Origin: an uncultured Gemmatimonadaceae bacterium
GTDB lineage: Bacteria; Gemmatimonadota; Gemmatimonadetes; Gemmatimonadales; Gemmatimonadaceae
NCBI GenBank assembly: GCA_963781585.1
Contig: CAWAGQ010000008.1
Coordinates: forward strand, 224,001-288,000
Direction: 5' to 3'
Length of the DNA stretch: 64,000 nt
Shown: one piece after another, positions 225 through 60,332 of the stretch
How positions within the stretch are numbered: the first letter of the stretch is position 1
How the letters are laid out: the number at the start of each line of letters is the position of its first letter
Notes under the pieces: generated by a model
What the model saw: only the letters and a program-made list of their open reading frames with translations
The model's database searches: none
Told to the model about the DNA's origin: nothing
Program-made: the position numbers and the translations under genes

Positions 225-1024
225 TGCAATGGTGGTGCAGCGCGTCCAACCTGCCCTGGGCGTGGACCTGGCGGCCCTACCCCGGCGTCTGGCTGTTCAT
301 CGGGCTCGTCTTCTTCCTCGTCCGGTTGTGGAACAGGACCGCGGCAGGTCGATCCGGCCATCGCCCGCCACCAGTGCACCCTCTTTTCCTGCTCGGCCTG
401 CTGCTTCTCTGGAGCGCGCTCGACTGGCCGCTCGGCACGTTAGGCGCCGGCTATCTTGCCAGCGCGCACATGCTGCAGTTTCTGCTCATGTGTCTGGTCG
501 CGCCACCCCTGCTGCTGCGTGGCCCTTCTGGGGATGCACTCGCGATCCTGGACCGCGAAACCCGCTTCGCGAGGACATTCTGCCGCCTCACGGCGCCCGG
601 TCGCGCATTGATACTGTTCAACGCGGTGGTGCTGGTGACCCACCTGCCACCGGTCGTCGACACACTGATGCGGACCCAGCTCGGCTCGCTTGCCATCGAT
701 CTCATCTGGATCGCCGCCGGGCTGCTCTTCTGGTGGCCGGTGGTGCTGTCGTCGCCGGCCCACCCGAGGTTCTCCCCGCCGCTCAAGATCGGCTACCTGG
801 TCGTGGGCATGATGTTCAGCCCGATCATGTTCGGCCTGGTGGGCTTTCTCGTCTACAGCGACCATCCGCTCTACGGCATCTTCGAGCTCGCGCCTCCGTT
901 CCCAGGTATCAACTCACATGATGACCACCAGCTCGCCGGCGTCATGATGAGCGTCGGCGGCGCGGTGATCGCGTTCACCGCCATCAGCGTGATCTTCTTC
1001 AGGTGGAGCAAAGCCGAGGCCTAG
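224..1024 (+). CDS. ctaG: Cytochrome c oxidase (caa3-type) assembly factor CtaG family
   Basis: Multi-TM protein with 'SAHMLQFLL..LVAPPLLL', 'LLFWWPV' and 'DHQLAGVMM' motifs; stop/start overlap with the copper chaperone. Confidence 0.8.
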   Translation: MQWWCSASNLPWAWTWRPYPGVWLFIGLVFFLVRLWNRTAAGRSGHRPPPVHPLFLLGLLLLWSALDWPLGTLGAGYLASAHMLQFLLMCLVAPPLLLRGPSGDALAILDRETRFARTFCRLTAPGRALILFNAVVLVTHLPPVVDTLMRTQLGSLAIDLIWIAAGLLFWWPVVLSSPAHPRFSPPLKIGYLVVGMMFSPIMFGLVGFLVYSDHPLYGIFELAPPFPGINSHDDHQLAGVMMSVGGAVIAFTAISVIFFRWSKAEA

Positions 1025-1027
1025 CGG

Positions 1028-2653
1028 TCAACGCTCCCGCCCCGCTCTCCACTGCTCGAGCGCCTTCACCCGCGATTCGAGCGCGGCAATCCGGTCTCCG
1101 CCGGGCTGTACCGGCGCTGCCCGTGTGGCGCCCGAAGCGGCCCTCCCCACCCCACCCGGTCGCCGGCCTACTCCGCGTGTCGACACCTGGAGGAACGCGC
1201 GGCCGATCGGCCCCAGCCACACGAGGCGGAACAGGCGCTCACCGATCGGCATGCGGAACGGACCGCGCACCAGCAGAAGGAAACTGACGCCAAGCAGGCT
1301 CAGTCCCGACGCCGACATCACGAAGCGGCCTAACGACCCCCCTTCACCCGATTGCGGATCGCCGCTCCGGGTGATGCCGGCGCCGGTTCCCAGGGAAAAA
1401 CGCACGTTCAGCGATGTTCCGACGAGTACGATCGCCACCGGGAGCAGCAGCACCGCGATCAGGACCGTTCGCCGCCGGCGGCGTCTGGTGTCGGGATCGG
1501 CGCGAAGCTGCTGCCGCAGATTCTCGCGTTCGTCGACCACGGCCCGCAGCCCGCTCGACACATCGCCGGGCTGAAATCCCAGCACCGCCAGCCGACGGGC
1601 GGCGGACGACACCAGCAGCGCCCGCGTCAGCGCTATGACGATCAGGATGATCGCCGGAAGCAGCGCGTACGCCGTTCCGACTTCCTTGCGCATCGTCCGG
1701 ACCGTGAGCCAGCTGGTCAGCGTCAGAAACACGAGCACCAGACCGAGCGTCCCCGCTTCCTGCGCGAACATCCGGATCGGAACCGGGATCTCGGCTCCGG
1801 CCAGCTGGGCGACATCGATTGCTTCGACCAGCGCTTCCGCCGACGCAAATCGATCCTCCGGTTTCTTCGCCACGCAGCGGTCGATCGCGTCGCCTAACGC
1901 TGCCGGGATGTCTCCCCGCAGCTCCACCGCCCGCGGCGGCATCTCGGTCAGCTGCTTGACCAGAATCTGCTGGGTGGTCTCCCCGGTGATCTGCGGCCGC
2001 CCCGTCAGCGCGTAGAGCGCCACCAGCCCGAGCGAATACAGATCGCTCCGCCCATCGACCGAATCGCCCGACGCCTGCTCGGGGCTCATGTACTCCGGCG
2101 TGCCCACCACCTCACCGACCCGCGTCATGCCCTGCGTGCCCACCGCCGCCGTGATCGGCCTCGAGATCCCGAAATCCATCAGCTGCGCACGGCCCGTGGC
2201 GCGCTCGAGCATCACGTTGTCGGGCTTGATGTCGCGATGGACGACCCCGCGTCCATGAGCGTACGCCAGGGCATACCCGATGTCCTGCAGCAGCCGAACG
2301 ATGCCGCGCGCGTCGAGCGGTCCCGCGCGATGGACCCGCTGCGCCAGGCTCTCCCCCTCGACATACCCCATCGCGAACGCCAGCAACCCGTCGCGCTCCT
2401 CCACCGCGTGCACGGGAACGATGTTGGGATGCGAGAACGACGCCGCCGTCCGCGTCTCGCGCAGGAAGCGCTCGCGAAGAGTGGCATCGCCCGCGAACTC
2501 GGGCGGAAGCACTTTCAGTGCGACCGGCCGATCCAGCCGCAGATCGCGCGCGAGATATACCGCGCCCATGCCACCGCGACCGAGCTCGCGCTCGATCGCG
2601 TAGCGGTCGCCAAGTCGCCTGCGAATCTCGTCGAGGGAGGTCTGGTCGGTCAC
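1028..2653 (-). CDS. Hanks-type Ser/Thr protein kinase with C-terminal transmembrane helices
   Basis: GRGGMGAV, VALK, HRDIKPDN, DFG and GTPEYMSPE motifs; hydrophobic C-terminal segments; GTG start at 2653 chosen because the upstream ORF extension is low-complexity. Confidence 0.92.
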   Translation of the reverse strand: MTDQTSLDEIRRRLGDRYAIERELGRGGMGAVYLARDLRLDRPVALKVLPPEFAGDATLRERFLRETRTAASFSHPNIVPVHAVEERDGLLAFAMGYVEGESLAQRVHRAGPLDARGIVRLLQDIGYALAYAHGRGVVHRDIKPDNVMLERATGRAQLMDFGISRPITAAVGTQGMTRVGEVVGTPEYMSPEQASGDSVDGRSDLYSLGLVALYALTGRPQITGETTQQILVKQLTEMPPRAVELRGDIPAALGDAIDRCVAKKPEDRFASAEALVEAIDVAQLAGAEIPVPIRMFAQEAGTLGLVLVFLTLTSWLTVRTMRKEVGTAYALLPAIILIVIALTRALLVSSAARRLAVLGFQPGDVSSGLRAVVDERENLRQQLRADPDTRRRRRRTVLIAVLLLPVAIVLVGTSLNVRFSLGTGAGITRSGDPQSGEGGSLGRFVMSASGLSLLGVSFLLLVRGPFRMPIGERLFRLVWLGPIGRAFLQVSTRGVGRRPGGVGRAASGATRAAPVQPGGDRIAALESRVKALEQWRAGRER

Positions 2654-7856: not shown

Positions 7857-10800
7857 ATGCCGCGCTCGCCATTGCTCCGATCCATCGCCATCGCTGCACT
7901 CGTGACCCCCACGGTCTCGCCCGTGTTCGCACAGAATGCCGTGATGCCATTCCAGTTCGACTCCACGACCATTGCCTCGTTCCGATGGCGCAACGTCGGG
8001 CCGGCGAACACGCTCGGGCGTATCTCCGACGTGACCGGGATTCCCTCTCCCTCCAAGACGTTTTTCGCCGCGGCTGCGGGAGGAGGGATCTGGAAGTCGA
8101 CCAACAACGGCGTGACCTGGCGTCCGGTCTTCGATACCCAGCGCGTGGTGGCGATGGGCATGCTCGCGATCGCACCGAGTGACACCATGCAGGTGTGGGC
8201 CGGCACCGGCGAGCCGAACTCCCGGAACACGATCTCACCTGGAGGCGGTGTCTACAAGTCGATCGACGGCGGCATCACCTGGAAGCTGATGGGGCTCGAG
8301 CGGACCCAGGCCATCGGTCGCATTGTGGTCCATCCCACCAACCCGGATATCGTCTACGTCGCCGCGTTAGGCGCGCCGTGGAACGCCAGTCCCGAGCGCG
8401 GGCTCTACAAGACCACGGACGGCGGGCAGACGTGGCAGCTGGTGAAGTTCATTTCCGACAAGGCCGGAGTGGTGGATGTCGCGCTCGACCCGGCCAATCC
8501 CGATGTGGTCTGGGCCGCCAGCTGGCAACGGGTGCGTGGCCCGTACTTCCTGAATTCCGGCGGACCGGGCTCGGCACTGTGGAAGTCGGCCGATGCCGGC
8601 AGGACCTGGACCGAGGTCAAGGGCGGCGGCTTCCCCGAAACCACCAAAGGGCGCATCTCCATCGCCATTGCGCTCTCGAATCCGAAGACCATGTACACCA
8701 TGGTCGAAGCCGATACGGCGCCTAACGCCAAGCCGGCACCCGGGAAGCCGCGACAGGAGTCGCCCAGTGGGCTGTACCGTTCCGACGACGGCGGCGCCAC
8801 CTGGAACCGCACCAGCAACCAGAATACGCGGCCGTTCTACTACTCACAGGCGCGTGTCCACCCGAAGAACCCCGATCGTGTGTACTGGTCGTCCACTCCG
8901 GTGCTTGTCTCGAACGACGGCGGACGCACCCCGATCAATGCGACGGTCGGCATCCACGTCGATCACCACGCGATGTGGATCGATCCCATCGATCCCGACC
9001 GCATGATCGTTGGCGACGACGGAGGCGTCGCCATCTCGTTCGACCAGGGCGGAACGTATGTCTTCCCCAACGTCTTCCCCATCGGGCAGCTCTATAACAT
9101 CAGCTTCGACATGCAGGTGCCGTACCGCGTCTGCGGGGGCCTCCAGGACAACGGATCGTGGTGCGGGCCCAGCCGGCGCCGGCAGGGCCCCATCACCAAC
9201 AGCATGTGGTTCAACGTCGGCGGTGGAGATGGGTTCGTTACCCAGCAGGACCCCAACGACCCCAACACCATCTACAGCGAATCACAGGGGGGATCGGTGG
9301 GGCGCCTGAACTACGCGACCGGAGAACGGGTCAGCCTCGTGAAGCCGCAGTGGCGCCCTGCGTACGACGTGTGGGAGGATTCCCTCCTCGTCGACTTCCC
9401 GGATACCACCAGGCCGGCGACCAGGGCGCAGAAGAAGCAGGTGGCCGATATCCGCGCCCGTCAGCGCGCCGATTCCACCGCCCTCGACCTGCGCTGGAAC
9501 TGGAATTCGCCCTATTTCATTTCCCCGCACAACCCGCAGACGCTGTACTTCGGCGCGAATCGGGTACTCAAATCCACGAAGCGGGGCGATGACATGTTTC
9601 CGATCTCGCCCGATCTCACCACCGCGGACACCATGAAGATCCGCGTCTCGATGAGAACCACCGGCGGCATCACCAACGACGCCACCGGCGCCGAGACCTA
9701 TTGCACGATCGTCTCGCTCAACGAGTCGCCGATCCGGCCGGGGATCTTGTTCGCCGGCACCGACGACGGCCGCGTCTGGATCAGCCGCAACGACGGTGGC
9801 GCATGGGAAGAACTCACCGGGCGCTTCCCGGGAGTCCCGGCCGGCACCTACGTCACGCGCATCGAGCCGTCACCGCACGATTCGATGACCTTCTTCGTCA
9901 CCTTCGACAACCACCGGAACGGCGACTTTACACCCTACGCATACCTGACGACGGACTTCGGCAGGACCTTCAGGTCGATCGTCGCAAACCTGCCCAGAGG
10001 GGGGCCGGATTACGTCCACGTCATCCGACAGGACCTCGTCAACAGGAACCTCCTCTTCCTCGGCACCGATGTCGGCGCATATGTCTCGGCAAACCTGGGA
10101 CAGACGTGGCAGCGATTCATGACCGGACTGCCCACTGTGCCGGTACACGATCTCCGCATTCACCCGCGCGATCACGAGTTGATCGCGGCAACTCACGGTC
10201 GTGGAATCTGGATCGTCGACATCTCGGCGCTCGAGCAGGTCACCCCCCAGGTCATGACCCAGGATGTCCATCTGTTCGAAGCACTCACCTCGTACGAGTT
10301 CGGCGATGTGCCCGTGGAGGGACAGTCCACCGGGAACATGGTCTTCGAGGGAACGAGCTCGCCCTACGGCGTTGTCATCGCGTATCGACTGGCTGCGCGC
10401 CAGTCACCAGTCCGCGTGGCGATCATCGACGCCGCCGGCGACACGATGCAGGTGCTCAACGGACCGGGGGCGCCCGGAATCAACCGCGTCGCGTGGGGGT
10501 TCCAGGGCAAGCCACCAAAGCGTCCGCCGCTGTCCATAGCGCAACACCGTGACTCAGTCGCACAGATGGAGCGGATCGTGTTTGTGCTCGATTCCCTCGA
10601 GAAGGCTGGCATGAACACGATGATGCTCGGGATGATGCGGCAACTGGCGAAGACCGGCGACCTCACGCCGATGTTCGAAATGTTCGGCGGGGGCGGACGC
10701 GCAGCGGGACCGGGGGGCTTCGGACCGCCACCGCCATGGAACCCAAGGCCGGCAGAGCAGGCAGGCCGTGGGGGTGGTCGCGGCGGCGCCGCAGGCGGCG

Positions 10801-11433: not shown

Positions 11434-13068
11434 ATGTCAGCACTTGCCTCGTATCGCCAATCGCGCACATCGCCGTTCGGACGGCGCGTGGCGTCCGCAC
11501 TGCTTGCCGCGTTGTTCTTGGGCGCCACGGGCAGTCTCGGCGCGCAGGGCGGCAAGCCCCCTGCCAGGCCTCCCGCACGTCCCGCGGCACCCAAGCCAAC
11601 CACAGCACCGGACAGTGCCCGGCCGCAGCCGGACAGCCTCGCTTCCCAGGCGGCGCCGCCTTCGGCCGCGCTTGCCTCGATCAGCGGCAGCGTCTACGAC
11701 AGCGTGCACATGGCCCCGCTGCAGAGCGCAGTAGTGCACGTTGTGGGCACTGCCCGTATGTCGTTCACGAACGAAACGGGACACTATCGCATCGACAGCG
11801 TTCCGCCGGGAATGCGCCGGGTGGGTGTTGAACACGCGCTGCTGGATTCCATTGGCGTGACGATGGTTACGGATTCCTTTGATCTGCATGAGAGCGACAA
11901 CAAGATCCTCGATCTCGCCGTACCCTCGAGCGAGACGATGGTCGCCGTGTCCTGTCCGCCCGCCCGGCGTGCGTTAGGCCCGACGGCAATAATCGGCCGG
12001 CTGCTCGATGCCGACACCGATGCTCCTGTAGCCGGCAGCCGCGTCTCGTTTGCCTGGTCGGAGATCTCCATCACCTCCGGGTTGCGCCGTGTTCCCCGCG
12101 TAATGGACGCCACCACGGGCAAGGATGGCGTCTTCCGGATCTGCGGCCTCCCGAAGGAAGTCGAGGGGACGCTGCAAGCCGAGATGAAGGGCATCACCAC
12201 CGCCGAGGTGCCAATCAAGATCGAGGCGACGGCGCTGAGGATTCAGGGACTGCGCATCGGCAACGCGAAGACGGTCGCGCAGGTGGACAGCGACAGCACC
12301 TCGAAGCCAAAGACCGACGACAAGGTCACCGGCCAGCGCTTTTCGGCGCTCAACATGCAGCGGGGCAATGCCGTCCTGCAGGGACGCGTGGTGTTTGCCA
12401 ACGGACAGCCTGTGGCAGGCGCGCGCGTGGACGTGCGTGGGGCGCCGAGCGCCACGCTGACCAAGGAGGACGGGCAGTTCACGCTCTCGGAACTGCCGTC
12501 GGGTACGCAGACGGTGATCGCACGCCAGATCGGATTCGCCCCGGTGGAAGTACCGGTCGACCTTTCGACGCGCGCCCCGCGGAACGTGACCATCACGATG
12601 AGCAAGCCGGCGGCGCAACCGCTTCCCACCGTGGAGGTGAAGGCCGAACAGGACAAGGGGCTTATAAACCTCGGCTTCCTGTCACGACAGCGCGTGGGCA
12701 ATGGATACTTCGTTACCGGCGAGGATGTCATGAAACGCGCACCCAACGTGCTTACCGACGTGTTCCGGACCATTCCGTTGCTGCGCGTGACACCCGGCGG
12801 AGCGTACGGAAACGAGTACATTGTCGAGGAGACACGCCGGCAGGGCTTGACCAGTTGCGTGCGGTACGTGGTGGACAACGCGCCGTGGGAAGCCCTCTAC
12901 CCGGGTGATCTCGACCGCCTCATGCCTCCGTGGGAAGTCGGCGCCATCGAGGTCTACTCATCGGCAAGCGTGCCGATCCAGTTCACCGGCGCCGGTCAGT
13001 CGGCCTGTACGGTCATCGTGATATGGTCGAAGTCCAGCGTCGACGCGGCGGGCAGGCGGAAGAAGTAG
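11434..13068 (+). CDS. Secreted protein with carboxypeptidase-regulatory-like (CarboxypepD_reg) domains and a C-terminal TonB-plug-like domain
   Basis: Signal peptide plus Pro-rich linker; repeated 'I-x-G-x-V...P-V-A-G-A/S-R-V' Ig-like units; 'EVGAIEVYSS...CTVIVIWSK' plug-like end. Confidence 0.7.
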   Translation: MSALASYRQSRTSPFGRRVASALLAALFLGATGSLGAQGGKPPARPPARPAAPKPTTAPDSARPQPDSLASQAAPPSAALASISGSVYDSVHMAPLQSAVVHVVGTARMSFTNETGHYRIDSVPPGMRRVGVEHALLDSIGVTMVTDSFDLHESDNKILDLAVPSSETMVAVSCPPARRALGPTAIIGRLLDADTDAPVAGSRVSFAWSEISITSGLRRVPRVMDATTGKDGVFRICGLPKEVEGTLQAEMKGITTAEVPIKIEATALRIQGLRIGNAKTVAQVDSDSTSKPKTDDKVTGQRFSALNMQRGNAVLQGRVVFANGQPVAGARVDVRGAPSATLTKEDGQFTLSELPSGTQTVIARQIGFAPVEVPVDLSTRAPRNVTITMSKPAAQPLPTVEVKAEQDKGLINLGFLSRQRVGNGYFVTGEDVMKRAPNVLTDVFRTIPLLRVTPGGAYGNEYIVEETRRQGLTSCVRYVVDNAPWEALYPGDLDRLMPPWEVGAIEVYSSASVPIQFTGAGQSACTVIVIWSKSSVDAAGRRKK

Positions 13069-15111: not shown

Positions 15112-16560
15112 CTACTCCACCACTCGCTTCACGATCGTCCCGGCAGCGAAGGTCGTGCTTACCTCCACACCGTTGATGAGCGCCACGTCAGCAAGGGGAA
15201 TGACCGACGGGTAGGTCTGATTGAACTCAGTCACCGTCATCGCCCTCGGCAACGTCACGAGCGTGATGCGCTGAGGCTTCACGTTCAGTGCCTGCGGATC
15301 GGTCAGTTGCTGAAATGAGGAAATGGCCTGTCGGAGCGCTGCGTCGTACTGGTTCTCCAGCGCCGTCGTGGAATAGCCGAGGATCCTGTAGGTGGTCCCG
15401 TTCAGGCTCACGAACGCCACCCATCCGCTCAGGCTCCCCTGATCCGTCTGGGCACTGAACGAGCCGAGCGACGACGGCAGACCGTTGATGCTCGATGTCC
15501 CGGTCTGCTGTCCGCTCAGTCCTTGCTGGCCCAGGAAAGTTGTCAGGGCCTCGGACGGAGGCGTGGTCCCTGCCAGCGACAGCACGAGCACCGCATCCTG
15601 CGCCGGGCTGACCCCAACCACCTGGTCGGCCTGATTCGCGGTCTTCCATCCGCCCGGAAAATCAAGGCGGAATCGCAGCGTGGGGTGGAGAAACGTCGTG
15701 CCCCGGAAGTATCCCTGACGTGGATCCTCCCCGAAAACGATTCCACTCAGGTGCTGGAGGTACTGGTCGCGGTCGATCTTCAGCCCGCTCGGCAGCGGAC
15801 TCGCTGCGGCGATTCGCTGCTCCGTCTTCGCGACCCGGTTGCCGGGATCCGGATGGGTCGACAGCCAGCCCGGGGTCTTTCCACCGCTCGCGTTGCTGAT
15901 GCGCTCCAGGGTCTGGAACATCTGCTCCATGGCGTGCGGGTCGTAATGCGCCTGGAGCGTGTAGCGGAATCCCAGCTCGTCGGCCTGCGTTTCCTGGTCG
16001 CGGCTGAACTTCAGGAACAGGACGCCCATCGCCTCACTGGCCAGGTTGCCGAACTGCTGGAGTTCCGGACTCACGATCATGCCGACCCCGAGGGCAAGCC
16101 CGGCGATCTGCTGCCGCGACATTTCGTGCACCTGATGCTTCGCGGTGATATGCCCTGTTTCATGTCCCAGCACCGACACCAGCTGGGCTTCCGAATTCGC
16201 GTAGGTCAGCAGGCCTCTGGTGACGAACACCGGACCGCCGGGCAGCGCAAAGGCGTTCACCGACGCATCCTCGACCACCTGGTACGACCAGGGCAGGCCC
16301 GGACGCTCCGATTTCGGGCCGAGCATCATGCCTAACGACGAAACGTAGGCCTGCAGTGTCTGATCGTCGGTGAGTCCGATGGTCTGCGCCACTTCCTGTT
16401 TCCCCTGCTGACCGAGGGTGATCTCGTCCGACTCCGAGATCAGAGACAGCTCGCGCTTCCCGGTCACCGGGTTGGTCGCGCACGCCGCCACGGCGAGGGC
16501 CAACGCGGTGCAGCGAAACGCGGGACGGACCAGCGGGCCGGAGCCCTGAGACGTGCGCAT
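15112..16560 (-). CDS. M48 family Zn metalloprotease lipoprotein (BepA/YfgC-like)
   Basis: Lipobox 'AVAAC-ATNPVTG'; 'VNAFALPGG'; HETGH zinc motif; 'SRDQETQAD'; 'STHP'. Confidence 0.92.
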   Translation of the reverse strand: MRTSQGSGPLVRPAFRCTALALAVAACATNPVTGKRELSLISESDEITLGQQGKQEVAQTIGLTDDQTLQAYVSSLGMMLGPKSERPGLPWSYQVVEDASVNAFALPGGPVFVTRGLLTYANSEAQLVSVLGHETGHITAKHQVHEMSRQQIAGLALGVGMIVSPELQQFGNLASEAMGVLFLKFSRDQETQADELGFRYTLQAHYDPHAMEQMFQTLERISNASGGKTPGWLSTHPDPGNRVAKTEQRIAAASPLPSGLKIDRDQYLQHLSGIVFGEDPRQGYFRGTTFLHPTLRFRLDFPGGWKTANQADQVVGVSPAQDAVLVLSLAGTTPPSEALTTFLGQQGLSGQQTGTSSINGLPSSLGSFSAQTDQGSLSGWVAFVSLNGTTYRILGYSTTALENQYDAALRQAISSFQQLTDPQALNVKPQRITLVTLPRAMTVTEFNQTYPSVIPLADVALINGVEVSTTFAAGTIVKRVVE

Positions 16561-25992: not shown

Positions 25993-26008
25993 CGGAGATC
26001 CTGTCCCG

Positions 26009-41696: not shown

Positions 41697-41913
41697 GGGG
41701 CGGGTGAGCGTCTGGTCCCGGACTCGATTCGGGACGTCTATAGTGGGCGCACCGCTCCCCGCTCGCAACTGTGTGCATCGAGGCGGGACACCGAAGCACG
41801 GGTGGCCCGCTCCCGTGACATCGCCCCGCGCGGAACCGACCCACTCCCTCCCGACCTGCACGGCGACCGCCGCCTGGGTGCCGTGTGCGGCGCCCCAGTG
41901 GTCGCACAATGCG

Positions 41914-42282
41914 TTAGGCGACGACGATTCTCAGTTGGATGTGATCACCGGGTTCGATCAGCACGTCCCGGCTGGTGATCGTAACCTGCGCTCCGAATCG
42001 TCGCACCATGAAACGCATCGAAGCCCGCGCCCGCGTCAGCGATCGAGGAAGCGTGAATGTCGTCTTCTGCATCGCGTGGACCACCCCGAGCTCCGTCGGT
42101 AGGCCCCCGTACACCACGTACACCACCATGTCATCGAGACGCTCATTCCGCACCTCGAGCACGGTCTTCGTGGAGTCGACCGGATCGGGAGTGGTCGTCT
42201 CCACGAGCACGGATTGCGCCCGCGCCGTCCCACCAACGGAAGCGACTGCCACGAGCGCCAGCATCACAACAAGGGGCCGCAT
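41914..42282 (-). CDS. Small secreted hypothetical protein
   Basis: GGAGG RBS; signal peptide; 'LEVRN...VVYVV...LGVV' beta-sandwich. Confidence 0.7.
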   Translation of the reverse strand: MRPLVVMLALVAVASVGGTARAQSVLVETTTPDPVDSTKTVLEVRNERLDDMVVYVVYGGLPTELGVVHAMQKTTFTLPRSLTRARASMRFMVRRFGAQVTITSRDVLIEPGDHIQLRIVVA

Positions 42283-44967: not shown

Positions 44968-46640
44968 CTACCATGCCACTGCATATGCCTCCCGCCGGGG
45001 ATCGGCTCCCGCCAACCGCGCTCCTGATCGGTCAATCACGATCATTTGGGCGCCTCCGAACTCTGCGCTGGGCTCCTGCACCGTCACGCTCTGTCCCCTG
45101 CGCCTGAGATCACTGCGCACGTCTTCGCCAATTCCCGGTTCCACGGCGATGCGCCCCCGGTTGAACACACGCCAGCGCGGCGCCTCAACCGCCTGCTGGG
45201 GCGTCATCCCGAATCGCCAGACGTTGTTCAGGATCTGGATCAGCGTCTGTGGCTGACCATCTCCGCCCGGAGTCCCGAACACCGCCGCCAGTGACCGATC
45301 TGCATTCAGCGCCATCGCCGGACTCAGGGTGTGGAAAGGTCGCTTTCCCGGCGCGATCACGTTCGGGTGCGAGGGATCGAGGCTGAACAACGACCCCCGA
45401 TTCTGAAGAATGATCCCCGTACCAGGCACCATCCTCCCGCTCCCGAATTCGGCGAACAGACTCTGAATCATCGATACCGCGTTCCCATCCTTGTCCACTA
45501 CACAGAGGTAGACCGTATCGCCGGCCCCATCGAATGGCGGATTCCCCTGGTTAGGCGCGGCGACGCTGTCGATCCGAATGCGACTGCCCAGGTCCCGCGC
45601 ATACGCCTTCGACAGCAGCCGGTCCAGCGGAACAGGGGAAAACGCGGGATCGGCCAGATAACGGTCACGGTCGGAATAGGCCAGCTTGGCACCCTCGGCC
45701 AGGATGTGGATGTACGCAGCCGAGTTCCACCCCGCGTGCGTCAGGTCCGTCAGCTCCGCGAGATTGAGCATCTCGAGAAACGCCATGCCCTGCGAGTTTG
45801 GAGGGAATGCCAGCACCGTCCTTCCCAGATAGAGCGTGGATATTGGCTCCTCCCAGGTCGAGCGGTGACTGGACAGGTCCGGACCCGTTAGGAGCCCTCC
45901 CTCTTTCTCCATGAATTGCACAATCCTGCCGGCAAGGGCTCCGGAATACAGCCCCTCCGAGCCCTCGCGCGCGATTGTGCGAAGCGTGCCGGCGAGGTCG
46001 TGTTCGACCAGCATGCTGCCCGGTCGCGGCGCGGCGCCATCCTGCAGGAAAACCCGCGCAAGCTCCGGATCGGCCGCAACTTTTGCTTTCTCCTCCGTGA
46101 TATCGCTCCACAGCCGGCTGCTTACCGGAAAACCGCGCTCGGCATAGGAAATCGACGGCGCGAGTGCCTGGTCGAGCGTGATCGTTCCGAACCGCTTCAA
46201 CGCATCCTCCCAGGCCCGCACCGCGCCCGGTACTGAAACCGAGAGAATTCCCGTCGCCGGTACCGAATTGAGATTTCGCTCGGCAAAGAAGGCGGCGTCG
46301 CTCGAGCGCCGGCTCGTCCACTGCCATTCAGTGCGTACACGCGGCCGGTCCGCGCCTCGCGAATGAGAAGGAACGCATCTCCCCCCACGCCGTTCATGTG
46401 CGGCCGCACCACCGCCAGAACACCCGCCATCGTGATCGCGGCATCAACCGCGTTCCCCCCACGCCGCAACACCGCCGCGCCCGCCGCCGACGCCAGGGCA
46501 TGATCAGACACGACTGCAGCTTCTGATCCCATTACATCCGGACGCATCATTGGTCGCTGAGCTCCGAGCATGCCGGAAAGAGCAAGACCTGAAGTGAGAA
46601 TCAAGCCGTTGACAGCGGGCGCTCGGTGATGGACGGTCAT
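44968..46640 (-). pseudogene. ggt: Gamma-glutamyltransferase, split by a 1-bp frameshift near 46295
   Basis: N-part 'GGNAVDAAI..HMNGVGGDAF..ALNGSGRA' is in one frame; 'AFFAERN..SVSVPGAVRAW..GDTVYL..RPFHTL..GTPGGDGQPQ' is in another. Confidence 0.85.
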
Positions 46641-47284: not shown

Positions 47285-49519
47285 ATGGCGACAACCGCGA
47301 ACTCCACGCGCAAAGACGTCCTTCATGCCGTCTCCGCGCGTCTCGTGAAATCCACTCCTCCCTCCACCAACGGCACGGGGGTGCATCACGCCGCTCCGGT
47401 GTCCGAATACTTCGGCGTCAACACCTTTGGCGTTAGGCAGATGCGCTCGAAGCTCCCGGTGGATGCATGCGACAAGCTGGTCAGCGCCATCCGCCATGGC
47501 AAGAAACTCGACGTCGACATCGCCTCCACCGTCGCTCAGGCAATCAAGGAGTGGGCCATCGCACGCGGCGCAACCCACTTCACACATTGGTTCCAGCCGC
47601 AAACTGGCCTCACTGCTGAGAAGCACGATGCCTTCCTGACCTTCGACGAGAACCGCCAGCCGATCGAGCAGTTCTCCGCCGCCCAGTTGATCCAGAGCGA
47701 GCCAGACGCCTCGAGCTTCCCCTCCGGTGGATTGCGCGCCACCTGGGAAGCCCGCGGTTATACCGCCTGGAATCCCGCAAGTCCGGTCTTTGTCTTCGAA
47801 TCGGGAGGTGTGCGCACCCTCTGCATTCCATCCGTGTTCATTGGTTATAACGGAGAAGCGCTCGACGAGATGACGCCGCTGCTGCGCAGCTCAGACGTCC
47901 TGTCGGCAAAGGCGATCGAACTTCTCGAGCTGCTCGGGGACAAGCAGGTCTACCGCGTCTTCACCACGCTCGGCCCGGAGCAGGAGTACTTCCTGATCGA
48001 CCGCCAGCACTTTGCATTGCGACCGGATCTGGTCATGGCAAATCGCACGCTCGTCGGCGCCGCCCCACCAAGGGGACAGCAGCTCGAAGACCACTACTTC
48101 GCTGGCATTCCCGAACGCACCCATGCCTGCATTGCGGAGGTCGAACACGAGCTCTACAAGCTTGGAGTGCCGATCGTCACTCGACATAACGAGGTCGCAC
48201 CCTCGCAGTTCGAGATGGCGCCTGTCTTCGAGGAAACCGACATCGCCGTCGACCACAACCAGCTGGTCATGGCCCTGCTTCGACGCGTCGCCCTTCGCCA
48301 CGGCCTGCAGGCCATCGTTCATGAAAAACCGTTCGCGGGAATCAATGGCTCCGGGAAGCACTGCAATTGGTCCATGGCGGTTGCCGCAGACAGCGATCTC
48401 GATGGACTGAACTTGCTCAAGCCGGGACGCACACCCCACCAGAACCTCCGCTTCCTGCTCTTCCTTGCAGCCGTCCTCAAGGCGGTTCACGAACACGCCG
48501 GGCTCCTCCGGGCCGGCGTAGCCAGTTCCGGAAACGAGCATCGACTCGGTGCAAACGAAGCTCCCCCTGCAATCATCTCCGTCTTCATGGGCGACATGCT
48601 CACCCGCCTGATCGAAGGCATCATCGCCGGTCGCGCACACAGCAAGAGCGCCGAGCAGGAACTCATCCGACTCGGGGTCGCTAAGCTTCCGGAGATCGAG
48701 AAGGACAATACGGACCGCAATCGCACCTCTCCCTTCGCCTTCACCGGCGCCAAGTTCGAGTTCCGCGCCGTTGGCGGAGGCCAATCCATAGCTTGGCCCG
48801 TCACCCTGCTCAATGCCGCGGTTGCCGGTGCGATCGAGCACATCACCGACGATCTCCGCGCCGAGAAGAAGAAAACGCGCAACATCGACGATGCCGTCCT
48901 GCGCGTCGTTCGCCGCATCTTCAAGGAAACAGCGCCGGTACGCTTCGAGGGAAACAACTACGCGGAGTCGTGGGTGACCGAAGCGGCTCGCCGCGGACTT
49001 CCCAACTACCGCCGCACACCTGAGGCACTCGGCCAGCTCATTACCAGGAAGTCCCGCGCGTTGCTCGTCGGTCTCGGTGTTCTCACCGACCGCGAACTCG
49101 ACTCACGCTATCACGTGCGCATGGAAAGGTACGTGAAGGATATGCTCATCGAGCTGCACATGATGCGTGAAATGGTGGACACCATGGTACTCCCGGCCGC
49201 GTTCGGATACGCCGGAAGTCTCGCGGCCGCGGCAGCTCAGGCGAAGGCGGCCGGCATTAGGGAGATCCCCCAGATCGACCGCGCCAATGAGGTCGGCAAA
49301 CTCGCGAAGGAGCTCAAATCCAGGCGCGACGCGCTCGTGAAGGTCATCGAGAAAGCGGAAGCCGCGCACGACGACGCCACCAGGGCCGCATTGTTGCTTA
49401 CCGGCGACGGCGCGGCAGCCATGGAGATGGTCCGCATTGCCTCCGACTCGCTCGAGCTCCTGATTGCCGACGATCAGTGGCCGCTTCCAAAGTATCGCGA
49501 AATGCTGTTTCCCGTCTGA
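47285..49519 (+). CDS. Glutamine synthetase type III
   Basis: 'THWFQPQTGLTAEKHDAF', 'EPDASSFPSGG', 'HNEVAPSQFE', 'GINGSGKHCNWS', 'HRLGANEAPP', 'RNRTSPFAFTG..FEFR' and 'WPLPKYREMLF'. Confidence 0.96.
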   Translation: MATTANSTRKDVLHAVSARLVKSTPPSTNGTGVHHAAPVSEYFGVNTFGVRQMRSKLPVDACDKLVSAIRHGKKLDVDIASTVAQAIKEWAIARGATHFTHWFQPQTGLTAEKHDAFLTFDENRQPIEQFSAAQLIQSEPDASSFPSGGLRATWEARGYTAWNPASPVFVFESGGVRTLCIPSVFIGYNGEALDEMTPLLRSSDVLSAKAIELLELLGDKQVYRVFTTLGPEQEYFLIDRQHFALRPDLVMANRTLVGAAPPRGQQLEDHYFAGIPERTHACIAEVEHELYKLGVPIVTRHNEVAPSQFEMAPVFEETDIAVDHNQLVMALLRRVALRHGLQAIVHEKPFAGINGSGKHCNWSMAVAADSDLDGLNLLKPGRTPHQNLRFLLFLAAVLKAVHEHAGLLRAGVASSGNEHRLGANEAPPAIISVFMGDMLTRLIEGIIAGRAHSKSAEQELIRLGVAKLPEIEKDNTDRNRTSPFAFTGAKFEFRAVGGGQSIAWPVTLLNAAVAGAIEHITDDLRAEKKKTRNIDDAVLRVVRRIFKETAPVRFEGNNYAESWVTEAARRGLPNYRRTPEALGQLITRKSRALLVGLGVLTDRELDSRYHVRMERYVKDMLIELHMMREMVDTMVLPAAFGYAGSLAAAAAQAKAAGIREIPQIDRANEVGKLAKELKSRRDALVKVIEKAEAAHDDATRAALLLTGDGAAAMEMVRIASDSLELLIADDQWPLPKYREMLFPV

Positions 49520-52323: not shown

Positions 52324-53142
52324 ATGAGTGCCCCGTCGCCCCCATCCCAGATCATATGCCCCGCCTGTGGCACAGCCGGAACAGGTCGGTACTGTGCAGA
52401 GTGTGGTGCCGTCCTTCAGGGTGCCACCTGCGCGGCCTGTCGTTCGCTTCTCGCTCCCGGGGCAAAGTTCTGCCACCGATGCGGAGCGACAGTCGGCTCG
52501 GCTCTCCCCGCGGCAACTCCCCTTCCGCCTGCCCACCGGGCGCCTGGTGCCCCTTCGGTAGGCTCACTCCCCTGGCTCTTTGCGGGCCTTGCCGTCGTGG
52601 CCTTGATCGTGATCCTGCTCGCTCAACGATCCGGCAATGCTGGCGTCGCAGGCGGAGGGACACCGGGCGGTGCTCCGTTTGCGGGCACTTCAGGCATGGC
52701 GTCCGCCCCCGACATCTCGTCCATGACACCTGAAGAGCGGGCCAGCCGACTTTTCGATCGTATCATGCGGTTGGCCACCGAAGGCAAGCAGGACAGCGTG
52801 AGCCTCTTTGCCTCGATGGCCATTCCCGTCTATGAGTCGTTAGGCCCCCTCAATGCGGACCAGCACTACGACTTCGGCCGTGTTGCCGAAGTGAGCGGCA
52901 GTCTCGACATCGCCGCGGCCCAAGCGGATTCGATTCTGAGACAATCACCGACTCACCTCCTCGGACTGATACTCGCCGCGCGTGTCGCCGACATGAAGGG
53001 CAACCAGGCCGCCCGGAATGCTTTCGAAAAACGATTCCTGGCCGCCCAAGCCGCCGAACTCGCGAAGAACCTCCCCGAGTACACTCTGCACCGCACCGAC
53101 ATCGAGGCCGCCGCTGCTGCCGCCAACTCTGGCAAGGGCTGA
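52324..53142 (+). CDS. Double zinc-ribbon membrane protein with TPR-like extracytoplasmic domain
   Basis: CPAC-CAEC-CAAC-CHRC; one TM; 'PTHLLGLILAA' TPR-like segment. Confidence 0.75.
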   Translation: MSAPSPPSQIICPACGTAGTGRYCAECGAVLQGATCAACRSLLAPGAKFCHRCGATVGSALPAATPLPPAHRAPGAPSVGSLPWLFAGLAVVALIVILLAQRSGNAGVAGGGTPGGAPFAGTSGMASAPDISSMTPEERASRLFDRIMRLATEGKQDSVSLFASMAIPVYESLGPLNADQHYDFGRVAEVSGSLDIAAAQADSILRQSPTHLLGLILAARVADMKGNQAARNAFEKRFLAAQAAELAKNLPEYTLHRTDIEAAAAAANSGKG

Positions 53143-54039: not shown

Positions 54040-54324
54040 CACTGCTGCTGGGCGTCGCTGCAGCGCGTCATGCCGTGATCATCGGCACCGGCAAGAACCA
54101 CAGCCGCGAATGCGTACAGGCCTCGCTCCAGCACTCGGGTCAAATGCACACGCGGTCACCGTCCGACTCGACCGCGCTCCCAGTGCTGGCACCGTCGCAC
54201 CGCAGGGCCTAACGTTCGGGAGCGGCTCTGCTACGCCCGTACCGGCCATGCCCTGAGATAGACCGCCGTTCTGTAGCTCGGGCTTCCCCTCCCCTCCGTT
54301 GCCTGCCGAGCTCATTCTTCCGGC

Positions 54325-55030: not shown

Positions 55031-55147
55031 TCACGTCTCCGCCTCACCCGTCGTTGGCGGGCGCTGCGTCTGCAAAGGCGCAAAACACGACCATCATCGA
55101 GCCTGTCGTCTGGCGGACCAAAGCGGACCCGGGGTAATCTTCGCGTC

Positions 55148-55693
55148 ATGGCGGAGTCCCCCCTCGCACTGCTTCGCGCTCACGCGCGTCACGCTCCCTG
55201 GAATGCGCGGGGACTCGCGGCACATGTGACTGCGCTCGTTGATGCAGCCGGCGTGCGACCGACCAACACGTCGGCGCGCGCCGCACCCACCGCGCGGGCG
55301 GTGCGATTCTACGTGTCCAATCAACTGATGGACCGCCCTGACGGACTCGGGACTGCGGCCACCTACAACTACCGTCACTTCCTTCAACTCCTTGCCATCA
55401 AGATACGACAGCGCGAGGGCATTACGCTCAGCGCGATCAAGAAGGAGATCAGGGAGACAACCGGTGATGCGCTGGAACGTCGTGTAGCGCAGGCCCTCGC
55501 CCCGGTCCTTCTCACCGGCACCCCCACTGCAGCCGGACACGACGATGAGCACGCTGCGTCATGGCGGCGCATTCCCGTCGCCGACGGTATCGAACTGCAC
55601 ATACGCGACGACTCTCCTGCATCACGAGATGATACCGTGGTTGCCATGCGGGAAGCCGTCAGAACCACGTTAGGCCGAACGGAGATGCGCTGA
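55148..55693 (+). CDS. MerR-family HTH transcriptional regulator
   Basis: 'ARAVRFYVSNQLMDRP..ATYNYRH..LLAIK..EGITLSAIK'; C-terminal 'WRRIPVADGIELHI'. Confidence 0.8.
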   Translation: MAESPLALLRAHARHAPWNARGLAAHVTALVDAAGVRPTNTSARAAPTARAVRFYVSNQLMDRPDGLGTAATYNYRHFLQLLAIKIRQREGITLSAIKKEIRETTGDALERRVAQALAPVLLTGTPTAAGHDDEHAASWRRIPVADGIELHIRDDSPASRDDTVVAMREAVRTTLGRTEMR

Positions 55694-55700
55694 GGCGCCG

Positions 55701-56423: not shown

Positions 56424-56433
56424 CGGAGTCCCC

Positions 56434-59274: not shown

Positions 59275-59285
59275 ATTCTCGAGGC

Positions 59286-60332
59286 ATGCGAGTCTTGTTC
59301 TGCGGCGCCGCCACCACTCTCGTGGCGGCGCTCTCATCTGTGCAGGCGCAGAAGCCGGTAGCCATCACCCCCGAGCCCACGGAGCGCCACCTCACCAACG
59401 TCGTGCGGCTGACGGCCGGCGGCGAAAACGCCGAAGCGTACTTCAGCCACGACGGCCAGTGGATCACGTTCCAGACAACCCGCGACGGCTACCCGTGTGA
59501 TCAGCAGTACGTGATGCGCGTCGACGGCACTGCACTGCATCGCATTTCCAACGGCCGTGGGAAGACCACGTGTGGCTGGTTCTTCCCGGGAGACCGTCGA
59601 CTCTTCTTCGCGTCATCGCAGGCATACGACAGCGTCTGTCCGCCGCGACCCGACCCCTCGAAGGGATACGTCTGGGGACTGGACCGCTACGACATCTATA
59701 CGGTCAACCGGGACGGTACCGATTTGCGACGCCTCACCAACTACGGCGTCTACACGGCCGAAGGCGTGCTGTCTCCGGATGGAGGCAGGATTGTCTTCAC
59801 GTCGTTGAAGGATGGCGACCTTGAGATCTACACGATGAACGTCGACGGCTCCGACGTTCGCCGCCTAACGAACGCAGCTGGATACGACGGTGGGCCGTGG
59901 TGGTCGCCCGATGGCACCAAGATCGCGTATCGCGCCTACCATCCCACCGACCCCGCCGAACTCGCAGACTACCAGAGCCTGCTCCAGCAGCGGCTCGTCC
60001 GGCCGACCAAGATGGAACTCTGGGTGATGAATGCCGACGGAACCAACCAGCACCAGATCACCCACCTCGGTGGAGCGAACTTCGGACCTTCGTGGACCCC
60101 CGACGGCAAGCGCATCATCTTCTCATCAAACTACAAGAACCCGAAAAGCCGCAATTTCGATCTGTATCTAGTCAACCTCGACGGAACAAGGCTCGAGCAG
60201 ATCACCACGCATCCGGAGTTCGACGGCTTTCCGATGTTCAGCCCGGACGGCAGGAAACTCATCTGGGCCTCCAATCGAGACGCCGCGAGAGAGGGGGAAA
60301 CCAACCTCCTGATCGCCGACTGGAAGAACTAG
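59286..60332 (+). CDS. TolB-like PD40 beta-propeller, secreted
   Basis: 'GENAEAYFS', repeated 'SPDG..I.F.S', 'YDGGPWWSPDG' and 'FDGFPMFSPDG'. Confidence 0.9.
   Translation: MRVLFCGAATTLVAALSSVQAQKPVAITPEPTERHLTNVVRLTAGGENAEAYFSHDGQWITFQTTRDGYPCDQQYVMRVDGTALHRISNGRGKTTCGWFFPGDRRLFFASSQAYDSVCPPRPDPSKGYVWGLDRYDIYTVNRDGTDLRRLTNYGVYTAEGVLSPDGGRIVFTSLKDGDLEIYTMNVDGSDVRRLTNAAGYDGGPWWSPDGTKIAYRAYHPTDPAELADYQSLLQQRLVRPTKMELWVMNADGTNQHQITHLGGANFGPSWTPDGKRIIFSSNYKNPKSRNFDLYLVNLDGTRLEQITTHPEFDGFPMFSPDGRKLIWASNRDAAREGETNLLIADWKN

Follow-up and report, generated by a model that had tools for sequence, protein, structure and literature searches.

CGTTAGG(C), a hyper-abundant non-palindromic word in a clade of uncultured Gemmatimonadaceae, as a candidate DNA-uptake-like signal

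Short DNA words that reach hyper-abundance are rare. DUS of Neisseriaceae, USS of Pasteurellaceae, and HIP1 are those that have been studied well, and the repeated occurrence of CGTTAGG in a 64-kb stretch of DNA (the window) from an uncultured Gemmatimonadaceae bacterium raises the question whether this word is a further case and what might maintain it. The heptamer occurs 23 times in the window, 13 times on the plus and 10 times on the minus strand, and 18 of the 23 copies extend to the octamer CGTTAGGC (Table 1); CGTTAGG and CGTTAGGC are the top-ranked over-represented 7-mer and 8-mer of the window. The octamer differs from its own reverse complement and so is not palindromic. Every copy listed in the preliminary description, with the same totals and strands, was found again, although some of the minus-strand starts given there are those of the octamer, one base below the heptamer start. 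An earlier description of a CGTTAGG(C) word was not found in the literature.

Table 1. Copies of the word in the window, with reading frame, location, and state of the same site in relatives (A and B, sense frames; E and F, antisense frames)
Form	Position	Strand	Frame and codons	Location	Same site in relatives
octamer	438..445	+	A, ACG TTA GGC (T-L-G)	CtaG-like gene 224-1024	
octamer	1328..1335	-	A, TCG TTA GGC (S-L-G)	Ser/Thr kinase gene 1028-2908(-)	
octamer	1892..1899	-	A, GCG TTA GGC (A-L-G)	Ser/Thr kinase gene 1028-2908(-)	
octamer	8365..8372	+	A, GCG TTA GGC	BNR/Sortilin-like gene 7857-11096	
octamer	8720..8727	-	E, CCT AAC GCC (P-N-A)	gene 7857-11096(+)	
octamer	11972..11979	+	A, GCG TTA GGC	CarboxypepD_reg gene 11374-13068	
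octamer	16330..16337	-	A, TCG TTA GGC	M48 peptidase gene 15112-16560(-)	
octamer	26007..26014	+	E, CCT AAC GGG (P-N-G)	gene 25024-26256(-)	
octamer	27724..27731	-	A, CCG TTA GGC	GMC oxidoreductase gene 26650-28398(-)	motif in L004
heptamer	29021..29027	-	A, ACG TTA GGT	PAP2 gene 28573-29667(-)	motif in L004, L016
octamer	29736..29743	-	A, GCG TTA GGC	PAP2 gene 29670-30449(-)	
heptamer	31861..31867	-	A, GCG TTA GGG	gene 30537-33029(-)	9/9 aligned relatives without motif (e.g. GTG CTC GGG)
heptamer	32748..32754	+	F, CAC CTA ACG (H-L-T)	gene 30537-33029(-)	
octamer	34439..34446	+	A, GCG TTA GGC	TldD-like gene 33511-35145	motif in none of best 40 of 78 aligned relatives; these mostly A-M-G, L004 GCC CTG GGC
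octamer	36112..36119	+	A, CCG TTA GGC, conserved P-L-G	PmbA-like gene 35142-36557	motif in L008, L010, L012, L020, L024; CTC/CTG in 9 other clade members
heptamer	39776..39782	+	A, ACG TTA GGT	close to 3' end of gene 38218-39801	
octamer	41912..41919	+		outside called genes, 2 nt past predicted TTG start (41909) of kinase gene 39819-41909(-)	
heptamer	45886..45892	+	F, CTC CTA ACG (L-L-T)	gene 44968-46221(-)	
octamer	47431..47438	+	B, GGC GTT AGG (G-V-R)	type III glutamine synthetase gene 47102-49519	motif in L004
octamer	52838..52845	+	A, TCG TTA GGC	gene 52294-53142	
octamer	54207..54214	-		intergenic, between 54039 and 54467	
octamer	55668..55675	+	A, ACG TTA GGC	ORF 55148-55693	
octamer	59863..59870	-	F, CGC CTA ACG (R-L-T)	gene 59286-60332(+)	

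A zero-order model predicts 7.71 heptamers and 2.49 octamers for the window, in agreement with earlier estimates of 7.5 and 2.5, and Markov models of order 1 to order 3 predict 1.5-3.2 and 0.5-1.1, respectively. Dinucleotide-preserving shuffles contained on average 3.08 heptamers (sd 1.80, maximum 8) and 1.06 octamers (sd 1.16, maximum 5), and the observed counts were reached in none of 100 shuffles. When synonymous codons were permuted 1000 times inside each of the 49 called genes, as the preliminary description had proposed, 2.27 +/- 1.45 heptamers and 0.68 +/- 0.77 octamers were obtained in genes; the 21 and 16 copies observed there (z = 13 and z = 19.8, respectively) were reached in none of the permutations, and both kinds of shuffling confirm the over-representation claimed earlier. 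Order-4 and order-5 Markov expectations climb to 11.5 and 20.7 because the 5- and 6-mer sub-words are almost confined to the motif (23 of the 44 TTAG tetramers of the window lie inside it), so that with only 64 kb of sequence a high-order Markov test becomes circular. The fold excess of the octamer amounts to 17 (18 versus 1.06), 29 (18 versus 0.62), or, within genes, 24 (16 versus 0.68).

Relatives were sampled as +/-10 kb around one gene each. A single clade (SH-aLRT 99 in a quick tree) unites L014 with each of the 16 sources that have 3 or more copies, and its 17 sources contain 119 heptamers in 319 kb (0.37 per kb), with densities from 0 (L014, 5.4 kb) to 12.5 per 10 kb (L008). The enrichment is not restricted to the window, a possibility considered in the preliminary description, as 96 copies were detected in 255 kb of 16 other species-level genomes of the clade. 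In the 11-member sister clade, no copies were found in 134 kb, so that the word is present in 16/17 sampled clade genomes versus 0/11 in the sister clade, and 51 other relatives yielded 12 copies in 739 kb (0.016 per kb). For the octamer, the density is 0.28 per kb in the clade versus 0.0068 per kb in non-clade relatives, a 42-fold difference. The word has a single origin among uncultured Gemmatimonadaceae, in the clade that keeps it at a density of about one copy in 2.7 kb.

Position 8 in a logo of 116 copies is mostly C (87 copies), less often T (19), G (6), or A (4), and the information outside positions 1-9 is at most 0.26 bit each, as expected from the earlier remark that flanks are not conserved. 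Some one-off variants are enriched as well (CGTTAGGT, 19 versus 2.6; CGTTATGC, 24 versus 3.6; G/TGTTAGGC, 14 versus 3.6), and the 14-bp palindrome expected from two half-sites is absent in all 17 clade sources. Chance, composition, or a dispersed repeat of the MITE/REP type, which could draw only on the general TA-poverty of the genome, is refuted by the dinucleotide and codon shuffles, by the replication in 16 other genomes, and by the absence of conserved flanks, and its probability is negligible.

Genes contain at least 80% of the copies; the DNA outside called genes, 9.5% of the total, holds up to 23/116. The 93 coding copies (of 116) comprise 58 in frame A, 25 in frame E, 4 in frame B, 4 in frame F, and 2 in stop-containing frames. 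The word had been described as strand-unbiased, which holds for replication (13:10 in the window, 29:25 in clade loci) but not for genes, where 15/23 window copies are read in the sense frame nCG-TTA-GGn ([S/P/T/A]-Leu-Gly). Such a preference could reflect a translation or mRNA signal, in which a special context of the rare Leu codon TTA (nCG-TTA-GGC) would cause a pause or serve regulation; bldA/TTA in Streptomyces is an example of a regulatory codon context. Of the TTA codons, 15/20 in window genes and 58/113 in the clade set are inside CG_TTA_GG, and frame A is the most enriched frame relative to codon usage. However, enrichment is just as strong in intergenic DNA and in the antisense frame CCT-AAC-G: among flank-matched sites of the clade, 51/114 (45%) are filled in the sense frame and 16/33 (48%) in the antisense frame (Fisher p = 0.84), and the same sites in relatives outside the set are filled in 0/172 and 0/79 cases, respectively. 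In addition, none of 157 P-N sites in relatives carries the motif, the word interrupts no ORF, and the +1 frameshift-like frame (GTT AGG C) accounts for only 1/23 copies in the window and 4/116 in the clade. The antisense and intergenic enrichment largely refutes an mRNA signal, which we regard as very improbable.

As antisense and intergenic sites are equally enriched, and as there is neither replichore bias nor flank conservation nor pairing at terminators, CGTTAGG(C>T) is a signal in duplex DNA and does not act at the level of mRNA, codons, or protein. Its copies sit wherever coding constraints permit, in sense mainly as nCG-TTA-GGC, in antisense as CCT-AAC-G (Pro-Asn), and more freely in intergenic DNA, and copy orientation follows the gene strand because placement is limited to the tolerated frames.

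Filling also differs among frames. Flank-matched frame F (nGC-CTA-ACG) is filled at 2/28 sites and frame B at 2/73; filling in frame F is about 6-fold lower than in frames A and E, a deficit (p about 1e-4 to 5e-4) that is not accounted for by how CTA and TTA are used in general. A frame dependence of this kind (A/E versus F/B) is not predicted by known drive models or by a purely frame-blind drive.

With regard to replication, GC skew is negative in 16/16 4-kb segments of the window, yet copies are oriented 13:10, and pooled clade loci with |skew| of at least 0.02 gave 29:25 (p = 0.68), skew-based replichore assignment being weak at 6-22 kb. A Chi-like recombination hotspot, read by RecBCD, AddAB, or AdnAB, would be in keeping with the strong excess of the word in genes and with its form, which is short, non-palindromic, and as long as such a site should be. 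Chi is oriented with replication, about 75% of E. coli Chi sites being co-oriented, whereas the orientation observed here is nearly balanced under a constant skew sign; this bears out the earlier argument against Chi and KOPS, and a Chi-like role appears quite improbable. The spacing of copies looks random (CV 0.8-1.1), and for HIP1 a periodicity of 10-90 kb has been reported. Neighboring copies are 120 bp or less apart in 5/101 cases, with 1 inverted pair (95 bp apart) and 4 direct ones, and none of 7 terminator-like sites at 41-56 kb of the window overlaps a copy.

At the conserved P-L-G site of Table 1, 6/15 clade members carry the motif, and their distribution is at odds with the tree. At a 4-fold-site identity of 0.5-0.85, motif sites are retained in 33/71 cases versus 34/136 for control synonymous 7-mers, although the sub-bin 0.7-0.85 reverses this order (motif 1/7 versus control 3/6). 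At saturating divergence, the motif also occurs in the other genome at 57/326 motif sites (17%) versus 117/567 compatible non-motif sites (21%), and its presence in one genome is no predictor of its presence in the other. The maintaining force is sequence-specific and genome-wide, and what it maintains is the density of copies, not their individual locations. A DNA-binding protein that is abundant and specific to the clade, with a nucleoid-associated or chromosome-organizing function and a site density kept by selection, might account for an orientation-independent duplex-DNA signal that is dispersed about once every 2.7 kb and conserved across the clade, and such a role was put forward for HIP1 by Xu et al. 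(2018; PMC5861425). However, long-term positional conservation is lacking at saturating divergence and spacing is near-random, and we consider a nucleoid protein site decidedly unlikely.

As the most likely mechanism we tentatively propose a DNA-uptake-like 'self' word, considering the enrichment throughout the clade, the equal filling of sense and antisense sites, the 29:25 orientation, and turnover combined with maintenance. In the known systems a dedicated receptor (ComP; ComN/PpdA have been proposed) gives DNA with a DUS or USS preference in binding, uptake, and transformation, and competence machinery comprises ComEC, ComEA, DprA, and the type IV pilus. In the Gemmatimonadaceae clade, a surface receptor of the transformation machinery would favor DNA with the word, word-bearing alleles would be taken up and recombined more often, causing molecular drive, and the word would be a 'self' tag for clade DNA. 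Against this proposal, no pilin or com/competence genes are present in the 64-kb window, inverted pairs are scarce and terminator-like sites at 41-56 kb carry no copy, the word is shorter than DUS or USS, and frames F and B show a deficit; no report of transformation in Gemmatimonadota was found in the literature.

The same distribution fits equally well with a HIP1-like word, which would result from a ratchet in which a clade-specific methyltransferase or a mismatch-specific repair enzyme recognizes all or part of the word and biased repair converts near-matches until a set density is reached. Depending on the null, the octamer is 17- to 42-fold over-represented, inside the 15- to 300-fold range reported for HIP1 (Xu et al., 2018; PMC5861425), and, like HIP1, the word occurs in coding and non-coding DNA and is retained above control at moderate divergence. 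The enriched one-off variants may be compared with Elhai's HIP1 one-offs, described as mostly at end positions (PMC4390886), and the filling ceiling of about 45-48% in the two favored frames suggests saturation as in Elhai's model. However, the word is not palindromic and the window contains no methyltransferase or Vsr-like gene. A single-transition (deamination-type) ratchet at position 5 is also unsupported: at P-N sites of the clade, CCG (20) and CCC (12) are depleted alike versus 31 and 15 scaled from relatives. By itself, the methylation or repair ratchet seems unlikely; a HIP1-like methylation/repair word or a nucleoid word would together be nearly as likely as the uptake-like word. It is doubtful, if conceivable, that the word represents a third, independently evolved uptake 'self-recognition' sequence and the first outside Proteobacteria, in an uncultured soil Gemmatimonadaceae clade.

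The known words DUS, USS, and HIP1 opened the question of how sequence-specific drive or selection shapes genomes and proteomes, and to these a new hyper-abundant word is added, which fills about 45% of the sites able to encode it and claims half of the TTA codons of the clade set. Its first appearance falls on a node that can be dated, within a phylum that has few cultured members and is not known to undergo transformation, and the comparison of clade and sister clade (16/17 versus 0/11) offers a clean design for locating the responsible gene. If the word is an uptake tag, abundant soil bacteria would be naturally transformable and would exchange DNA preferentially within their clade, and uptake specificity would provide a handle on gene flow and a route to better genetic tractability of soil bacteria. 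If a methylation or repair ratchet is at work, the word would be a non-palindromic counterpart of HIP1, and models for the origin of HIPs could be tested against each other with its help.

Among known systems, Chi and KOPS/AIMS are likewise short over-represented chromosomal words, but they are co-oriented with replication and the Gemmatimonadaceae word is not (13:10, 29:25). REP/MITE repeats are conserved in sequence past the core and mostly intergenic, whereas here flanks hold at most 0.26 bit per position and most copies lie in genes. HIP1 (GCGATCGC, cyanobacteria) shares with the word its octamer length, a tens-fold excess in and between genes, lineage specificity, retention of sites above control, and partly enriched one-off variants; it is palindromic, as are all HIPs described in PMC5861425 and PMC4390886, and the Gemmatimonadaceae word is not, belongs to a different phylum, and has no known associated methyltransferase. 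DUS/USS frames are said to favor preferred codons (PMC2817400), unlike the very rare codons TTA and CCT used here, and about half of the DUS/USS copies are located in terminators, often as inverted pairs, according to bioRxiv 10.1101/2025.10.24.684340, whereas at least 80% of the copies described here are inside genes and inverted pairs in terminators are absent. With 8 bp the word is also shorter than uptake sequences, which have 9-12 bp plus flanks (10-12 bp for DUS). With DUS/USS it shares a short, non-palindromic sequence (hundreds to thousands of copies per genome being an extrapolation here), higher density outside genes, a single origin, a distribution by phylogeny, and turnover among orthologous sites. 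Also shared, as reports on uptake sequences show (Findlay and Redfield, 2009, PMC2817400; Frye et al., 2013, PMC3630211), are a strong reading-frame bias, occurrence in both orientations with no replichore bias, clade-wide conservation, and a density of similar magnitude, the clade word standing at 0.37 per kb over 319 kb beside about 1 per kb for DUS/USS.

The 64-kb window contains 23 copies of the heptamer CGTTAGG, 13 on the plus and 10 on the minus strand, and 18 of them are the octamer CGTTAGGC, in which C follows at position 8. The copy coordinates of the preliminary description were all correct, some of its minus-strand entries being octamer starts. The word ranks first among the over-represented 7-mers and 8-mers of the window, and its observed counts were reached in 0 of 100 dinucleotide-preserving shuffles, which gave 3.08 ± 1.80 heptamers and 1.06 ± 1.16 octamers. 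Markov models of orders 0 to 3 predict 7.7, 3.2, 1.5 and 2.1 heptamers and 2.5, 1.1, 0.5 and 0.6 octamers in the window, respectively. At orders 4 and 5 the heptamer expectation rises to 11.5 and 20.7 because sub-words occur almost solely within the motif, and these models are therefore circular at the 64-kb scale; 44 TTAG tetramers are present (zero-order expectation 227), of which 23 lie within the word. High-order Markov z-scores were for this reason replaced by codon shuffles and by relatives as an empirical null. Genes were called by a codon-usage score (49 calls covering 88% of the window, most of them with Pfam support), and synonymous codons were permuted 1000 times inside each gene. 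The claimed over-representation held against this codon-shuffled null, with 21 genic heptamers versus 2.27 ± 1.45 (z = 13) and 16 genic octamers versus 0.68 ± 0.77 (z = 19.8), and the null is conservative because the rare codons contributed by the motif are retained in the shuffles.

The gene content of the window, like the 78 loci related to it, indicates Gemmatimonadaceae. The word was counted in these loci (L handles; 1.13 Mb, one genome per species), fetched via the TldD-like protein of the window, the best relative of which, in L004, shows 83% amino-acid identity, and the proteins were placed in a tree by a quick IQ-TREE search. In the TldD tree, all 16 sources carrying 3 or more copies group in one clade (SH-aLRT 99). 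Its only further member is L014, a 5.4-kb locus with 0 copies and nearly identical to L015. Across the clade 119 copies were counted in 319 kb (0.37 per kb), the highest density being 12.5 per 10 kb, in L008, whereas 0 copies in 134 kb were found in its 11-member sister clade and 12 copies in 739 kb (0.016 per kb) in the remaining 51 loci. Enrichment is not restricted to the window, as 96 copies in 255 kb are left in the clade when the window is set aside. Word counts and tree together indicate that the enrichment is not local, has one origin and was kept in every adequately sampled member; extrapolated from the loci, about 1,500 copies would be present per 4-Mb genome. De novo word ranking in motif-negative relatives yielded candidate "dialect" words that were actually local intergenic tandem arrays of 7-bp units, not dispersed words. 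In the 12.5-kb locus L025, GTTGGGC, one base off GTTAGGC, has 16 dispersed copies, about 3-4 times as many as in other loci, 6 of them in the frame xxG TTG GGC (Leu-Gly), which is too weak for any dialect claim of a word related to the motif. The TldD-like gene of L072, a locus entered as a Pseudoxanthomonas MAG, nests in a Gemmatimonadota clade (SH-aLRT 100), and L072 is probably a mis-binned contig.

The word had been described as strand-unbiased, which is correct with respect to replication and incorrect with respect to genes. All 16 of the 4-kb segments have a negative GC skew, so that the whole stretch is one replichore arm and the word lacks a replication-linked bias. These orientation data disfavor a Chi-like role, which we regard as improbable. 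The orientation of copies does track gene strand and one reading frame, and the 13:10 split reflects that of the genes themselves, 25 on the plus and 24 on the minus strand. Fifteen of the 23 window copies lie in the sense frame nCG|TTA|GGn (frame A; [S/P/T/A]-Leu-Gly), 1 in sense GTT|AGG (frame B), 2 in antisense CCT|AAC|G (frame E; Pro-Asn), 3 in antisense CTA|ACG (frame F; Leu-Thr) and 2 outside called genes; CG_TTA_GG holds 15 of the 20 TTA codons of window genes. Only 1 of the 23 copies lies in the frame of the +1 frameshift heptamer known from yeast Ty1, and none of the ORFs is interrupted where the word occurs; this likeness was discarded.

Frames were also counted in a clade set of 15 sources (307 kb, 90.5% called coding, 116 copies). 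Frame A accounts for 58 copies, E for 25, B and F for 4 each and stop-containing frames for 2, and the other 23 copies are not within called genes or only touch their edges. Several of the 23 fall right at the start of a gene, provide a TAG stop or belong to genes that were not called, so that the 2.4-fold excess per kb in intergenic DNA is an upper bound. The word is present at 58 of 275 [SPTA]-L-G sites and at 25 of 74 P-N-[VADEG] sites of the clade set, versus 1 of 495 and 0 of 157 in an outgroup of 51 gene-called loci outside the clade set. Four loci with 1-2 copies (L017, L025, L042, L062) were kept apart, nine loci below 5 kb or containing N had no gene calls, and L014 was counted in the outgroup for these totals and for the position-4 and position-5 tests and excluded from the flank-matched comparison. 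In this comparison, sites were selected at which the flanking codons already match, so that a rare middle codon completes the octamer; frame A was filled at 51 of 114 sites (45%; outgroup 0/172), E at 16 of 33 (48%; 0/79), F at 2 of 28 (7%; 0/33) and B at 2 of 73 (3%; 0/143). Frames A and E are filled alike (p = 0.84), and this equality of sense and antisense filling, combined with the excess of copies in non-genic DNA, excludes a signal at the level of codons, mRNA or peptides; a translation-level reading, disfavored by the antisense data, is very improbable. The tie to gene strand is an effect of codability, because two frames hold stops and [SPTA]-L-G is about 4 times as common as P-N-[VADEG]. 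A strong reading-frame bias is likewise documented for the uptake sequences USS and DUS, in the relevant passages of Findlay and Redfield (2009; PMC2817400). Relative to the number of codons, [S/P/T/A]-L-G is 1.38 times commoner within the clade than in loci outside it, and no effect on the proteome was concluded since tripeptides of unfilled frames are also 1.2-1.3 times commoner.

Filling is about 6 to 17 times lower in frames F and B than in A and E, the deficit of F being about 6-fold against both A and E (Fisher p = 1.4e-4 and 5e-4), and the rare codons concerned are overall used at comparable levels. Outside the motif CTA is not rarer than TTA (99 versus 55 codons), and frame F, like E, needs wobble changes only. 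Wobble falls on motif positions 2, 5 and 8 in A and E and on 1, 4 and 7 in B and F, and in A and E the three least-constrained motif positions, position 8 included, are all synonymous. The F deficit is not predicted for a force that acts on the whole word regardless of frame. A degenerate position 4 was rejected as its cause, T being specifically enriched outside genes (T 23, G 23, C 7, A 5, versus T 0.8, C 9.7, A 2.0, G 6.1 in relatives, scaled to size). A deamination-type (transition) ratchet at position 5 alone was likewise rejected, CCG and CCC being equally depleted at P-N sites. A suggestive difference, from a small sample, is that TTG was found at 0 of 114 nCG_L_GGC sites in the clade and at 9 of 173 such sites in relatives.

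Presence or absence of the word at a conserved P-L-G site of the PmbA-like gene cuts across the TldD tree (see table). For all clade pairs, codons were mapped by tblastn and retention was binned by 4-fold-site identity. At identities of 0.5-0.85, 33 of 71 motif sites were retained versus 34 of 136 synonymous 7-mers serving as controls at comparable sites, with the opposite direction in the small sub-bin of 0.7-0.85 (1/7 versus 3/6). At saturation (<0.5), retention was 57 of 326, or 57 of 212 among still amino-acid-compatible sites, which is not above the chance of a compatible non-motif site being a motif in the other genome (117/567). Existing copies are thus protected or replenished; in the long term positions turn over, and density is held constant. 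Such dynamics fit mutation balanced by drive or weak selection and do not favor position-specific roles.

In a logo of the 116 copies from the window and 14 gene-called clade loci (L038, which contains N, was left out), seven bases are fixed, position 8 is C in 87, T in 19, G in 6 and A in 4 copies, and position 9 is mildly A or G. Conserved flanks had been reported as absent, and indeed no position beyond these exceeds 0.26 bit, leaving aside the GC periodicity of 3 bases that is typical of coding sequence. The one-off variants CGTTAGGT (19 versus 2.6), CGTTATGC (24 versus 3.6) and CGTCAGGC (59 versus 19.8) are modestly enriched, and no 14-bp palindrome of two half-sites was found in the clade sources. 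Copies are spaced almost at random, with a CV of 0.82 in the window and of 1.1 for the pooled data; five neighboring pairs lie at most 120 bp apart, four of them direct (one tandem, in L071) and one inverted at 95 bp. No terminator-like site at 41-56 kb of the window contains the word.

Several further features were recorded at the loci (see table). Several non-genic copies lie 0-12 nt upstream of a predicted start on the gene strand, as CCTAACG-N(0-12)-ATG/TTG, which could reflect a preference for 5' ends, start codons called wrongly, or chance. In one orthologous gene the stop codon at the 3' end is part of the word (CGT TAG). The 7-bp arrays of motif-negative Gemmatimonadaceae (units AGAAAGC, CAGGTAG, ACCTTTC) are intergenic and often come as two inverted arrays 40-100 bp apart; they look like an undescribed repeat habit of the family, separate from the word. 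The split of the gamma-glutamyltranspeptidase gene, away from any motif copy, is probably a frameshift (pseudogene or assembly error), and the tRNA overlap implies that the true start of the PALP enzyme gene is probably located more downstream. The distal segment of the window may be an integrated element and nonetheless holds 4 motif copies.

Positions of individual sites and of other features in the window and in related loci (L handles)
Feature	Source	Position	Details
Conserved P-L-G, PmbA-like gene	window	36112	word in window, L008, L010, L012, L020, L024; CTC or CTG in L001 (A-L-G), L004, L007, L014, L015, L016, L019, L022, L038, L071
Motif site	window	34439	closest relative GCC CTG GGC; A-M-G in most relatives
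Copies near predicted starts (examples)	L019; L008; L012; window	14591; 5192; 16537; 41912	
Word as stop codon	L071; L012; L016	18922-18937; 17337; 13104	tandemly duplicated in L071, CGTTAGGCCGTTAGGC
Short runs comparable to 7-bp arrays	L012; L071	~17345; ~18940	after motif copies at gene ends
7-bp-unit arrays	L021	663-770, 1529-1673, 2104-2281, 14626-14796	
7-bp-unit arrays	L039	12946-13100	
7-bp-unit array	L068	4145-4186	
Tandem repeat, 22-bp unit TAGACGCGCCCACCATCGCGCG	window	33076-33206	near-perfect; 5.9 copies, 98% matches; intergenic, gene 30537-33029(-) to TldD-like gene
tRNA-Cys (GCA)	window	42521-42593(-)	sole Rfam/ARAGORN match in window; overlaps 5' extension of ORF 42467-43783
Gamma-glutamyltranspeptidase, two overlapping ORFs	window	44968-46221(-); 46197-46718(-)	Pfam profile positions 88-511; 2-63
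Distal segment	window	44000-64000	GC falls from about 0.65-0.67 to 0.62-0.63; coding scores weak beyond 52 kb
Motif copies in distal segment	window	52838-59870	4 copies
Replication-initiator-protein-A family gene (PF10134)	window	56434-57321	

The word is clade-specific, belongs to duplex DNA, is orientation-free and is maintained in density, and some protein would be expected to recognize it. Two known phenomena have this signature, namely uptake sequences and HIP1, the hyper-abundant cyanobacterial octamer. A "self" tag of the uptake type is ranked first, as a tentative reading: it shares with DUS and USS (Frye et al. 2013, PMC3630211; PMC2817400) the lack of a palindrome and of a fixed orientation, the frame bias, a higher density outside genes, an occurrence throughout the clade and the turnover of copies. 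Crits-Christoph et al. (2020; PMC7305173) have argued, in passages that say nothing on this clade, that natural competence is widespread among abundant soil bacteria. Against an uptake tag stand the word length of 8 bp only, the underfilled frames F and B, and the lack of an association with terminators or inverted pairs, which about half of the known uptake sequences (DUES) show according to the section concerned of bioRxiv 10.1101/2025.10.24.684340. No methyltransferase, restriction, pilin or competence gene was recognized when the ORFs of the window were scanned against Pfam and NCBIfam. A HIP1-like ratchet driven by a methyltransferase or by mismatch repair seems rather unlikely when taken singly, and a HIP1-like nucleoid function somewhat more so; a HIP1-like origin of either kind is nearly as likely as an uptake tag. 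Background for both is given in parts of Elhai (2015; PMC4390886) and Xu et al. (2018; PMC5861425).

Literature searches found no description of the word, nor of other hyper-abundant words in the Gemmatimonadota, in agreement with the preliminary description, which knew of none. The top-ranked matches for the word itself (best 20 of 478) were apparently all unrelated, no paper joining Gemmatimonadetes with an uptake sequence was found, such a word was absent among the matches listed on Gemmatimonad DNA uptake, and searches on competence and methylomes returned nothing for Gemmatimonadota; Gemmatimon* is mentioned 0 times in the ComEC evolution paper PMC6299819. What is new here is the occurrence in another phylum of a known type of feature, a lineage-specific hyper-abundant short word. 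It differs from HIP1 in being non-palindromic, whereas HIP1 is palindromic, and from DUS in being mostly genic and located away from terminators.
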